Virus record (IMG/VR): IMGVR_UViG_2778261463_000007
Coordinates: 1 to 7,646 of that record
From: a virus
Taxonomy: Duplodnaviria; Heunggongvirae; Uroviricota; Caudoviricetes
DNA length: 7,646 nucleotides
Reading direction: 5' to 3' (one strand)
In this document: positions 146 to 3,843 of the stretch, piece by piece
Layout: each line of letters starts with the position of its first letter
How positions within the stretch are numbered: position 1 is the stretch's first letter
The notes under the pieces: model-generated
The model's input: the letters and a program-made list of their open reading frames with translations, nothing else
Database searches by the model: none
Told to the model about the DNA's origin: nothing
Position numbers and translations under genes: made by a program

Positions 146-221
146 TGGTGGCCCTTGCTGAATTTGAACCAGCGCCCTTGCGATTATGAGTCGCTCGCTC
201 TCACCACTGAGCTAAAGGGCC
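146..221 (-). tRNA. tRNA with anticodon CAT, tRNA-Ile2-like (lysidine type; anticodon-based tools would label it Met); resembles E. coli ileX and the ileZ of Stx-type phages
   Basis: Reverse complement gives GGCCCTTTAGCTCAGTGGTGAGAGCGAGCGACTCATAATCGCAAGGGCGCTGGTTCAAATTCAGCAAGGGCCACCA: 7-bp acceptor stem, D-arm GCTC/GAGC, anticodon loop CTCATAA, T-arm GCTGG-TTCAAAT-TCAGC, encoded CCA. The anticodon arm CGACTCATAATCG matches my recollection of E. coli ileX rather than elongator or initiator tRNA-Met. Confidence 0.8.
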
Positions 222-819: not shown

Positions 820-1926
820 ATGAAAAATTTAACAGTGGCACTTTCTGCTGTAGCAGCATCAGTATTTCTGGCAACGTCTTCAAATGCAGCAGAAATATAC
901 AATAAAGATGCAAACAAAGTGGATTTATACGGTAAAGCAGTTGGTTTACATTATTTTTCTTCTGATAAGGACCAAAACGGAGATCAGACTTACGCACGCC
1001 TTGGATTCAGAGGTGAAACCCAAATAAATAATTATATTACTGGTTTTGGTCAGTGGGAATATAATTTCCAGGGGAACAACCCTGAAGGGGATGGAGCTCA
1101 AACTGGAAACAAGACTCGCCTGGCATACGCTGGTCTGAAGCTTGCAGATGCTGGCTCTCTTGATTATGGTCGTAACTACGGCGTGGTGTACGACGCATTA
1201 AGCTACACTGACGTCTTCCCGGAGTTTGGACCTACCGCAGCGCAAAAGGATAACTTCTTCGTTGGTCGTGTAGGCGGTGTTGCCACATACCGCAACACTG
1301 ACTTTTTTGGACTGGTCGATGGGCTTAGCTTTGCAATTCAGTATCTGGGAAAAAATGAACGCAAGGATAAACCAGATACTTCAAACGGAGAGGGTGTAGG
1401 TGGCTCTGTCAGCTATGAATATGAAGGATTTGGTTTTGTCGCAGCATACGGCGCTGCTGATCGTACTAAAAATCAGAAAAAGGCTGAGCTTGGTAAAGGG
1501 AAAAAAGCTGAACAGTGGGCCACCGGGGTAAAATATGACGCAAATAATCTGTACCTGGCTGCCAGTTATGGTGAAACAAATAATACCCGTGCAATATCGT
1601 ATGGTGATAATATTTCAGGAGTGGCGAATAAAACCGAAGATTTCACTGTTGTGGCACAATACCAGTTCGACTTTGGATTACGCCCGTCTCTTGCTTATAC
1701 CCACTCTAAAGCAAAAAACCTTTCATCCAGTACTGATATTAGTAAAAAACATGATGACGGATATATTGAAAAATTCGTTGAAGTAGGGGCTTCTTATTAC
1801 TTCAACAAAAATATGTCTACATACATAGATTACAAAATCAATATGCTCGATAAAAATAAATTCACTGAAAGAACAGGAGTATCAACCGACGATATTGTCG
1901 CTGTTGGTCTGGTTTATCAGTTCTGA
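820..1926 (+). CDS. General porin of the OmpC/OmpF/NmpC family (prophage-borne, NmpC/Lc-like), 368 aa, with N-terminal signal peptide
   Basis: Signal peptide [23 protein letters not shown] followed by mature N-terminus [16 protein letters not shown] typical of enterobacterial porins; PEFG loop-3 motif; C-terminus [24 protein letters not shown]...[16 protein letters not shown] ending in Phe. Strong RBS. Gene is markedly more AT-rich than the flanking phage genes. Confidence 0.95.
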
Positions 1927-1971
1927 TTTATTCTGTAAGAATATGCCGGGGGAGTGAGAACTTTTCTGGCA

Positions 1972-2000
1972 TATAAAGTGGTGCCCTCATGCCACTGCAA
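1972..2000 (-). promoter_or_regulatory. Candidate late promoter (pR'-like) downstream of Q: -35 TTGCAG, 17-bp spacer, -10 TTTATA on the minus strand
   Basis: Position matches where lambdoid Q proteins act (promoter and qut site just downstream of the Q gene); hexamers read by eye only. Confidence 0.2.
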
Positions 2001-2070
2001 AACGTTGGACAGTACTTAACTTTTCCAACGAACTTTCTGTTATTTATTAACCTTTTTGGTTTTTATACTT

Positions 2071-2097
2071 GGGCGCTTTGCGCCCATTTTTTATTTT
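2071..2097 (+). terminator. Rho-independent terminator for the porin transcript (GGGCGC-TTT-GCGCCC then A-TTTTTTATTTT)
   Basis: Perfect 6-bp GC-rich stem, 3-nt loop and a T-rich tract on the plus strand. On the minus strand no U-tract follows, so it should not terminate Q-gene transcripts. Confidence 0.7.
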
Positions 2098-2104
2098 GTA
2101 CGCC

Positions 2105-2527
2105 TTATATCCCTGCCCTAGAGGACGCAGTTTTACGACGTATCGAATAATTTGTGCTCACATATCGATCCATCTCAAGGCGAACATCTAGCATCATCAA
2201 CATACCATCAACCACTCCTTCAGCTTTTTGCAAACGCTTTCCAATATGCGTATCCGAACATCCATGTTTCATTGCTAACTTCATGAACGTCATCCCATAT
2301 ACGTAGTAATCAACCAGCATGTCATGCATATCGGCGTTGTTCTTTTTCAGGCGAGCCATACAACCACATATAATCATCGCGTCATCATCGGAACACTGCG
2401 ATCGCGATTTTACTTTTGACGGTATCAGCCCCTTAAATCCGGCGGCAATGCCTGACCATTCCACGTCTTCATGATTATTTGCGACCCATGCCCCCCAACG
2501 TTCAAGAACCATTTGAATATCACGCAT
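2105..2527 (-). CDS. Q: Late-gene antitermination protein Q (QuuD-like family)
   Basis: Translation [62 protein letters not shown]... closely resembles my recollection of E. coli DLP12 QuuD. Start placed at the ATG preceded by GGAG 8 nt upstream; the ORF track extends to a TTG at 2542. Sits last before the late region, as Q does. Confidence 0.9.
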
Positions 2528-2544
2528 CAACTTTCTCCACAAAA

Positions 2545-3540
2545 TCAGGCCAGCACACCAGTTGCCAGCGCACGATCGATAAAACGAAATATCAGCTCCA
2601 GCTGGGAGCCATACTTCACTTCAAATGCCACGGTATCCGCATGCAGCTCGTCGTGATGCTTTCTGCACAAAGGCAACACAAAGAGGTCATGCGCTTTTGT
2701 ACCCATTCCCCCCTGACCGTGACCTATCAGGTGGTGGGGATCATCAGCAGGCTTTCCACAACATGCACACGGCTGTGTCTTAACCCAGCGCGTGTACTTT
2801 TCATTAACCCAGCGGCGACGTTTTGGGCGTAACATAAAAGACTCCGGCGACTCCGGATCCACTTTCAGCGCCAGCACCTTTTTCGCTTTATCCTGGATAA
2901 TGCTGGTGGCAGGAACCGAAGGAACAAGGTCACTCTCCCGGGTGACAGACGGCACAACAGGATTCGGTAATCTCAGTGCCTTACGGGCTGCACTTTCCGG
3001 TAAGGTATCCGCCAGGTCATTACGAACCAGCCACCAGCACAGTTCCGGCATTGTCACAACATGACTATCATCAAAACCGAGATCCCGACGCACGACAGAC
3101 AACACCCAGCGAGCACAGTTATCCGTTGCCATTGATTCCAGCCGTTCCGTGAACTGATCGCACAGCTGGTTATCGCAGTGCCAGCACAGACGGATTGCAC
3201 CCGGAGCGTGTCGCATTGTGGTCATGTTCTCGCTGTGCCAGTCGGAATGAGGCCACTGGCAGCCTTTTTCACGAAGTAACCAGCTTTCAAGACATTCCAC
3301 TCCACCAGCACGACGGATTACTGCCTCATTGCGGAACACGGCCCGAACGGCAGGATCATCCGCCAGCGGTTGTGATGCCGCCGGAACGGCACCGCTGGCG
3401 AAAGATGAATAACGTTCCGGCTCAGGCTCCAGCAGGACACGCCCCTGCATAAACAGGGGCATCAGCTCTGAACCTGGCCTGAACAATACGATCCCCATAC
3501 GCGGGGCAATTTCAGGGGTCAGTAGTGCTCTCACGGTCAC
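2545..3540 (-). CDS. Cys/His-rich nin-region protein, likely DUF968 family (YdfU-like), with a C-terminal HNH-nuclease-like motif
   Basis: 331-aa ORF immediately upstream of Q. C-terminal segment [43 protein letters not shown] fits an HNH-type zinc-binding pattern; a second Cys/His cluster (CQWPHSDWH...CWHCDNQLC) lies in the middle. GTG start at 3540 or the in-frame GTG at 3534, with GAGG upstream. Confidence 0.85.
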
Positions 3541-3585: not shown

Positions 3586-3843
3586 TCACGCAGTAAACTC
3601 CTTCACCAGAGTTTCAAACTGGCTTACCTTGCCTTCCAGTTCCGCCACGCAATCCACCAGCTCATCCACCGCCTTTTGTGTGCGGTGTTTTGCCTGCAGC
3701 AGATCACGAAGCGCCGGAGTAAGCTGCTTGCGGAGCGTATCCTTTGCCACGCTCATTTTTTCCATCTGTTCAGCACAACGAAGCATCTCCTGCGCCTGGC
3801 GACGAAGTTGTTCCGGTGAAACAGTGGCTGTTCTGTTATTCAA
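3586..3843 (-). CDS. Hypothetical 85-aa protein, predicted helical/coiled-coil, unknown function
   Basis: ORF with TTG start overlapping the DnaB-like stop (TTGA overlap) and GGAG upstream. Sequence is heptad-like and rich in charged residues and Leu. I recognise no family. Confidence 0.6.
   Translation of the reverse strand: MNNRTATVSPEQLRRQAQEMLRCAEQMEKMSVAKDTLRKQLTPALRDLLQAKHRTQKAVDELVDCVAELEGKVSQFETLVKEFTA

Follow-up and report, generated by a model that had tools for sequence, protein, structure and literature searches.

The question raised by this locus is whether the long structured tail behind a prophage porin gene is only the end of an mRNA or also a small RNA directed against the porins of the host. 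The window, by which we mean the whole stretch of 7,646 nucleotides analysed here, comes from a lambdoid prophage and covers its early-right/late junction, and its porin gene ends in the ORF list with the stop codon TGA at 1924-1926. The porin gene is the coding part of a transcription unit, and the element under study is the 3' UTR of that unit. The original prediction held that this tail could be a small RNA like IpeX, which it described as an RNA at the 3' end of nmpC in DLP12 that represses host porins. That description is borne out by the literature, and the reading of the tail as an IpeX-like RNA is now supported by covariance-model homology, by its position in the locus and by matching architecture. 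The window element is a divergent and rare IpeX subtype, belonging to a known family and not to a new kind of element. The best explanation is a joint one, and in our judgement it is probably correct: 1927-2097 (+) is a divergent IpeX-family RNA that forms the 3' UTR of a porin gene in a lambdoid prophage, and it would repress in trans by pairing. The homology, the structure, the linkage to the porin gene and the complementarity on which this explanation draws are all grounded in our own analysis.

Table 1. Features of the window and of the porin 3' UTR, with their positions, strands and basis.
Feature	Position	Strand	Basis or remark
Two tRNA genes, adjacent	68-144, 146-221	-	Rfam gathering thresholds; ARAGORN
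Prophage porin gene, 368 aa	820-1926	+	ORF; Pfam Porin_1, 419 bits
AU-rich unpaired leader UUUAUUCUGUAAGA	1927-1940	+	Mean P(unpaired) 0.61
SL1, 15 contiguous pairs (1941-1955/1960-1974), loop GAGA	1941-1974	+	Folding
SL2, 6-bp hairpin AGUGGU/GCCACU, loop GCCCUCAU	1977-1996	+	Loop P(unpaired) 0.91
SL3, hairpin CGUUGGA/UCCAACG with a small inner helix	2003-2030	+	Folding
Conserved, mostly unpaired stretch (~39 nt), predicted seed	2031-2069	+	P(unpaired) 0.55-0.63
Intrinsic terminator, stem UGGGCGC/GCGCCCA, loop UUU, then UUUUUUAUUUU	2070-2097	+	Terminator scan
Q antiterminator gene	2105-2542	-	Pfam Phage_antitermQ, 178 bits; converges on the element
DUF968, DnaB-like and DnaC-like genes and more replication-region ORFs	Beyond Q	-	Pfam/ORF list

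As shown in Table 1, the element lies between two convergent genes, both of which have relatives in PA-2 or DLP12. The window porin shares 60% identity with Lc of PA-2, and the window Q protein is 80% identical to QuuD of DLP12. The layout in DLP12 of E. coli K-12 is alike, with quuD converging on nmpC. Directly upstream of Q, a slot whose usual occupants are NinG/Rus-type genes, the window encodes a 331-aa protein (2545-3540, minus strand) with a C-terminal DUF968/HNH-like domain. On the other side of the porin gene, the tRNA pair is directed away from the porin, towards the lysis genes. ARAGORN gives the two tRNAs as Lys(UUU) and Met(CAU), and their homologues are annotated in RefSeq as Arg or Lys together with Ile. 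The first tRNA scores 31.2 bits in Rfam (threshold 29) and has broken pairs in its acceptor and T stems, and it may be degenerate. Between the tRNAs and the region upstream of the porin, the minus strand has a promoter-like site at 429-402 (TTTACG, 16-nt spacer, TATCAT) that is directed towards the tRNAs and may be the Q-dependent late promoter. In that case, the porin-IpeX cassette would have been inserted between Q and Q's promoter.

We examined the 3' UTR itself by folding and by direct reading of the sequence. The 7-bp inverted repeat named in the original prediction, ATATGCC at 1941-1947 and GGCATAT at 1968-1974, is present as described, and the terminator that it had placed about 145 nt beyond the stop codon has a stem that begins 144 nt after it. 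The repeat is the base of a hairpin of 15 bp, longer than the repeat alone, in which four of the 15 pairs are G-U. Another two hairpins, at 1977-1996 and at 2003-2030, together with the conserved stretch at 2031-2069, go beyond what had been noticed before. The loop of the first of these, SL2, holds the motif CCCUCA, which is invariant in the family and complementary to the GAGGG Shine-Dalgarno (SD) sequence of ompC and ompF. The conserved stretch consists of a first block, AACUUUCUGUUAUUUAUUA, and a second block, ACCUUUUUGGUUUUUAUACU, and its core, C(C/U)UUCUGUU(A/G)U(A/U)UAUU, is kept in all subtypes. The terminator stem (2070-2086) has seven pairs, six of them G-C, and is followed by TTTTTTATTTT up to 2097. 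This terminator would serve as the 3' end of the porin mRNA and of the small RNA alike. By analogy with the published processing of IpeX, the leader at 1927-1940 is a candidate cut site at which the small RNA could be freed from the porin mRNA. A conserved promoter belonging to the small RNA was not found, either by eye or by promoter scan.

The fold is considerably more stable than expected from composition. On the plus strand, 1924-2097 has a minimum free energy of -57.2 kcal/mol, compared with -34.7 ± 4.0 kcal/mol for 200 dinucleotide shuffles (z -5.6), and none of the 200 shuffles was as good. The minus strand folds far worse (-40.4 kcal/mol, z -3.0), and it has no U-tract after the terminator stem. 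The element is thus strand-specific because of its G-U pairs.

Similarity to DLP12, the check on which the IpeX reading had been made to depend, gave a divided answer: it was absent by blastn and present by a model of sequence plus structure. With a word size of 11, blastn of 1900-2110 found no DLP12/PA-2 match, either in 5426 genomes of E. coli or in 50,697 phage records. It returned five near-identical E. coli loci and, in strain E7-1N7, a 69% match adjacent to a porin; the phage records gave no match at all. Judged by blastn alone, the IpeX reading would have been rejected in error. We built a covariance model, R1, from 14 ipeX sequences of the DLP12/PA-2 type, leaving the window type out; note that the DLP12 ipeX sequence is 100% identical to the PA-2 region downstream of lc. 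R1 matched the window at 1924-2092 (+) over its full length (model positions 1-164 of 164) with 50.1 bits and an E-value of 1.8e-10. The second-best score within the window was 6.7 bits with filters off, and unrelated E. coli loci scored 10 bits or less. In the model alignment, the window element and DLP12 ipeX are about 60% identical. When the two 3' UTRs were compared side by side, the order of modules was the same: a long hairpin closed by AUAUG...CAUAU, a second hairpin, AAGUGGnnCCCUCAnGCCACU, that is nearly the same in both, a third one whose sequences are unrelated, a block C(C/U)UUCUGUUAU(A/U)UAUUA and a G+C-rich terminator.

The same structure is supported by base-pair changes across the family. 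MAFFT failed to bring the helices into register, and a model-guided alignment was used instead for the pair counts. In 26 distinct sequences, 96.5% of the cells were paired, compared with 42-49% when the partners were slid, although this alignment had been fitted to R1 and inflates the paired fraction. Changes on both sides were seen in 14 of 39 pairs, against 1-6 with slid partners and 5.7 after shuffling, and none of 500 shuffles was as high. Such changes included those in SL1 (6 of 15 pairs, 97.9% of cells paired), SL3 (5 of 9 pairs) and the terminator helix (helix 4; two pairs, 99.5% paired). For example, in the SL1 of the GF60 variant, U in place of C1946 is paired with A in place of G1969. 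Since the alignment had been fitted to the model, each subtype was also folded separately, and the same four modules were obtained every time. The Rfam 15 models gave no match to DLP12 ipeX; as even this sequence is without a match, a curated family is apparently absent.

We then determined how widely the element occurs and how closely it is tied to porin genes. The SL2 motif AGTGGNNCCCTCANGCCAC, which is present in all five subtypes, retrieved 119 IMG/VR stretches, giving 123 located copies together with the window and three reference loci. All 123 copies lie in an ipeX context, and 118 of them directly follow a porin stop codon. Among the other copies, three are truncated by a contig end and one, in locus L109, has a different upstream sequence. 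This L109 copy, at about position 3798 of the reverse complement, is an IpeX copy without an upstream porin gene, and unrelated DNA, with a G+C hairpin (GAACCCCCAGCCTAGCTGGGGGTTTT) at its end, takes the place of the sequence before SL1. IpeX can therefore persist without its porin. Conversely, every one of the 79 IMG/VR loci that encode a relative of the window porin has exactly one R1 match. In 78 of these the match begins at the base after the porin stop, and in the remaining one (L182) it lies about 700 nt further downstream. The single match in 79 of 79 porin loci indicates that the element is part of the phage porin cassette. Downstream of the host genes ompC and ompF, R1 found nothing; with nothing comparable there, the element is not a general porin 3' UTR.

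The window type is rare. It was found in 5 of 5426 complete E. coli genomes, mainly from poultry E. coli, whereas the DLP12 type was found in 2502 of the same 5426. Strains carrying the window type include ECCNB12-2 (NZ_CP033635), LH50-c, Ch1 and TUM1886. When one genome from each of 185,579 species was searched by pattern, E. coli was the sole species with the element, apart from one short contaminant-like contig and one chance match. The fifth subtype is carried by E. coli E7-1N7 (L001, 1428-2690), where it follows a porin annotated as 'OmpC' that is 61% identical to the window porin. That locus lies between IS3 and IS21 remnants, beside a pseudogene of the ProQ/FinO family, and has no obvious Q-lysis context. 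Insertion sequences were also seen at other porin cassettes. In ECCNB12-2 (L134, 9645-10816), ISKpn26 lies just upstream of the same porin, in a prophage that carries iss, and in K-12 (L003, 2592-3786) IS5 lies within nmpC, so that IS5-family elements are recurrent at porin cassettes. Both insertions would change expression of the porin-IpeX transcript.

Previous studies provide the functional background. IpeX has been described as a discrete RNA of about 167 nt, for which transcription starts at the porin promoter and the porin transcript is then processed (PMC12197685). The family is known for post-transcriptional repression of OmpC and OmpF, and not of OmpA. In the accessible literature, the mechanism of this repression is given as unclear or as not simply based on complementarity, and statements on Hfq dependence disagree. 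The 2006 abstract on IpeX reportedly stated that ipeX and ompC have no complementarity and that the effect on ompC is Hfq-independent.

A clue to pairing came from R1 itself, whose weak best match at K-12 ompC was antisense to the ompC leader. Folding full-length sRNA-mRNA duplexes gave meaningless end-to-end duplexes and was replaced by a seed-only analysis with backgrounds. Specifically, duplexes were predicted between the unpaired stretch of each subtype and positions -81 to +30 of each mRNA. For the window seed and ompF, the predicted energy was -25.5 kcal/mol (like all duplex energies here, omitting the costs of unfolding target and sRNA), across the Shine-Dalgarno sequence and the start codon: 2038-2048 with -8 to +3, 2050-2055 with the SD at -14 to -9, and 2057-2064 with -23 to -16. 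The window seed and ompC gave -22.5 kcal/mol, with 12 pairs between 2045-2056 and -14 to -3, and further pairs between 2031-2037 and +3 to +9. The order of preference was the opposite for the DLP12 seed, with -26.7 kcal/mol for ompC and -18.8 kcal/mol for ompF. In this DLP12-ompC duplex, AACCUUCUGUUAUAU forms 15 contiguous pairs with -21 to -7 over the SD, and CCUUUAUUU pairs with -31 to -23, the stretch of ompC used by MicC.

These energies were compared with 400 random 111-nt windows and with 246 SD-containing start regions, the latter taken from phages and not from the E. coli transcriptome. Duplexes as good or better were found in none of the 400 random windows and one of the 246 start regions for the DLP12 seed with ompC; the counts were the same (0/400 and 1/246) for the window seed with ompF, and were 1/400 and 3/246 for the window seed with ompC. 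Over six representatives of the five subtypes, the energies ranged from -19.6 to -26.7 with ompC, from -15.0 to -25.5 with ompF and from -10.8 to -14.5 with ompA. The window-ompA duplex gave -10.8, where the background averaged -13 to -14. Start regions of the phage porins themselves (-10 to -13) lay at background, as did ompA. A similar difference was seen for the SL2 loop, whose duplexes with the SD were -16.8 for ompF and -14.7 for ompC versus -6.7 for the porin of the phage itself. Of the 5426 E. coli genomes, 5365 have an ompC start region with 99% identity or more, and this near-invariance means that the RNA meets the same target in any host. Within the 15-bp DLP12-ompC helix, two variable positions keep pairing and one breaks it, which is weak support. 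Note that a U-rich sequence resembling an anti-SD can pair with many ribosome-binding sites. In locus L038 (minus strand, start codon at position 9368 of the reverse complement), a cI-like repressor has a start region (...GGGUAAAUAACAGAGGUGGCUUAUG) that equals ompC in complementarity, with -26.9 for the DLP12 seed and -28.1 for the window seed. This region has AUAACAGAGG in common with the ompC leader, and is either a chance match or a second target.

Together with the ipeX literature, the predicted duplexes allow a mechanism to be proposed. In a lysogen, the element would be transcribed from the porin promoter, ending at the terminator at 2097. The RNA would act in trans, either within the porin mRNA or after cutting near 1927-1940, and synthesis of OmpC and OmpF would be lowered while the phage porin is made. 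Repression would proceed by direct antisense pairing, with 2031-2069 predicted to cover the SD and AUG of both targets, so that ribosome loading on ompF and ompC would be blocked as it is by MicF and MicC. The phage porin mRNA, with its different leader, would escape. The pairing predictions thus suggest MicF/MicC-like occlusion of host porin ribosome-binding sites as the best-supported mechanism; that the window copy is expressed and that pairing is its mechanism are what we infer. This pairing model is at odds with published accounts, or at least absent from them. A wider form of it is that IpeX RNAs are classical antisense regulators acting through the unpaired stretch, perhaps together with the CCCUCA loop, and that porin cassettes carry differently tuned seeds, the DLP12/PA-2 type fitting ompC best at the MicC site and the window type fitting ompF best in a MicF-like manner. 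We regard this wider form as having an even chance of being right. If it is true, the mechanism of IpeX would be settled, and phage morons would be evolving target preference among host porins.

Four other readings of the element were weighed. The 3' UTR could act purely in cis, protecting the mRNA from exonucleases and ending transcription before Q, with no trans-acting RNA. Stable hairpins and a strong terminator are what such a role calls for, and their conservation could reflect mRNA stability. However, the best-conserved parts are the CCCUCA loop and the unpaired stretch rather than the stems, a pattern that a stability role leaves unexplained. Furthermore, the DLP12/PA-2 homologue acts in trans on OmpC and OmpF according to the literature, and the complementarity of the unpaired stretch is specific to ompC and ompF, as opposed to ompA or the phage porin. 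We consider a function restricted to cis unlikely.

A function of the opposite strand, as a late promoter or Q-utilisation site or as a leader RNA downstream of Q, is very unlikely. The usual place of lambdoid late promoters is just downstream of Q, and the Q gene ends only 8 nt from the element; with a Q protein from the family of QuuD (80% identity), the window might in principle have kept a Q site common to both. The promoter scan, however, gave no minus-strand site in 1927-2104, while a promoter-like site facing the tRNAs lies elsewhere, at 429-402. In addition, the G-U pairs of the helices become C-A mismatches on the minus strand (-40.4 versus -57.2 kcal/mol), and the element keeps its place at the porin stop codon and varies together with the porin type.

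The Rfam model of GcvB, a regulator of amino-acid transport, aligned at its full length to 1922-2094 (+) with 36.2 bits (E 1.3e-6 in a 351-nt search), and its conserved R2 stretch was aligned to ACUUUCUGU, so that the element might be a homologue, mimic or sponge of GcvB. This score is below the Rfam gathering threshold of 42 for RF00022; the G/U-rich R1 seed of GcvB is absent, with 46 model positions replaced by 27 unrelated bases; and no gcvA lies nearby. The match is also missing from DLP12 ipeX and is not reciprocal, the IpeX model giving E. coli K-12 gcvB 4.5 bits. Being sub-threshold, not in DLP12 ipeX and not reciprocal, kinship with GcvB is largely refuted and highly improbable, and the match is a likeness of architecture and composition. 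The Rfam scan of the window at gathering thresholds returned the two tRNAs as its sole matches, and MicF (RF00033) and MicC gave no Rfam match at E-values up to 10. Finally, a small protein from the 53-codon ORF at 1989-2150 (+) has a negligible probability, for the ORF exists but has no Pfam match and crosses the terminator into the convergent Q gene, and the variation in the stems is compensatory and not codon-like.

The reading as an IpeX-family RNA of a porin cassette has several consequences. Through their porin cassettes, prophages alter the outer membrane of a lysogen, affecting phage receptors (superinfection exclusion), antibiotic permeability and interactions with serum and the host. 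IpeX is not limited to the DLP12/PA-2 sequence but comprises at least five subtypes that BLAST does not link, and it is an obligate companion of the phage porin genes examined (79/79 loci). A covariance model for the annotation of IpeX, of which Rfam apparently has none, now exists. The predictions also provide a concrete pairing model for the repression of OmpC and OmpF, in which subtypes may be tuned specifically to ompC or to ompF. The window-type prophage of poultry E. coli also carries iss.

The closest known system is IpeX of DLP12 and PA-2. Like the window element, it extends from the porin stop codon to an intrinsic terminator and faces a convergent Q of the QuuD type, and it has four hairpins, the invariant SL2 (AAGUGG..CCCUCA.GCCAC) and the unpaired core CUUCUGUUAU. 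The arms of SL1, SL3 and the terminator differ in sequence between the two, although SL3 has the same position. Moreover, the window has about 9 extra bases (the UUGGUUUUUAUAC region) before the terminator, and its predicted seed is shifted towards ompF (-25.5 versus -18.8) and away from the 15-bp ompC helix of DLP12.

With MicF, the window RNA is predicted to share the covered segment, i.e. the SD and AUG of ompF, and the MicF seed and the window have UUAUUUAUUA in common (10 nt). In the GF60 relative (L002, 4130-4160), which is 88-91% identical to the window element, the likeness to the MicF seed (K-12 micF, L129, 2085-2177) extends to 14 contiguous bases, UUAUUUAUUACCGU, a level of identity reached in 2 of 500 shuffles. 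This shared seed may stem from a common origin, or the two RNAs may have converged on the ribosome-binding site of ompF. The architecture is other than that of MicF, as the window RNA is derived from a 3' UTR and is not a stand-alone gene, and its seed is internal instead of 5'-terminal. Thus, the window RNA may work like MicF and MicC without being a member of either family. As for MicC, its 5' end, GUUAUAUGCCUUUAUU, is complementary to a segment of ompC, and DLP12 IpeX is predicted to pair with ompC at -31 to -7, overlapping this segment. The window RNA uses a different register on ompC (-14 to -3 and +3 to +9), and the similarity to MicC is not significant. InvR (from SPI-1, repressing OmpD), DicF, CpxQ and SroC have no sequence or structural kinship with the window RNA but follow a like logic, in which an RNA from a mobile element or an mRNA 3' end, with its terminator, is directed against core-genome mRNAs, and InvR and IpeX are cited together in the literature.
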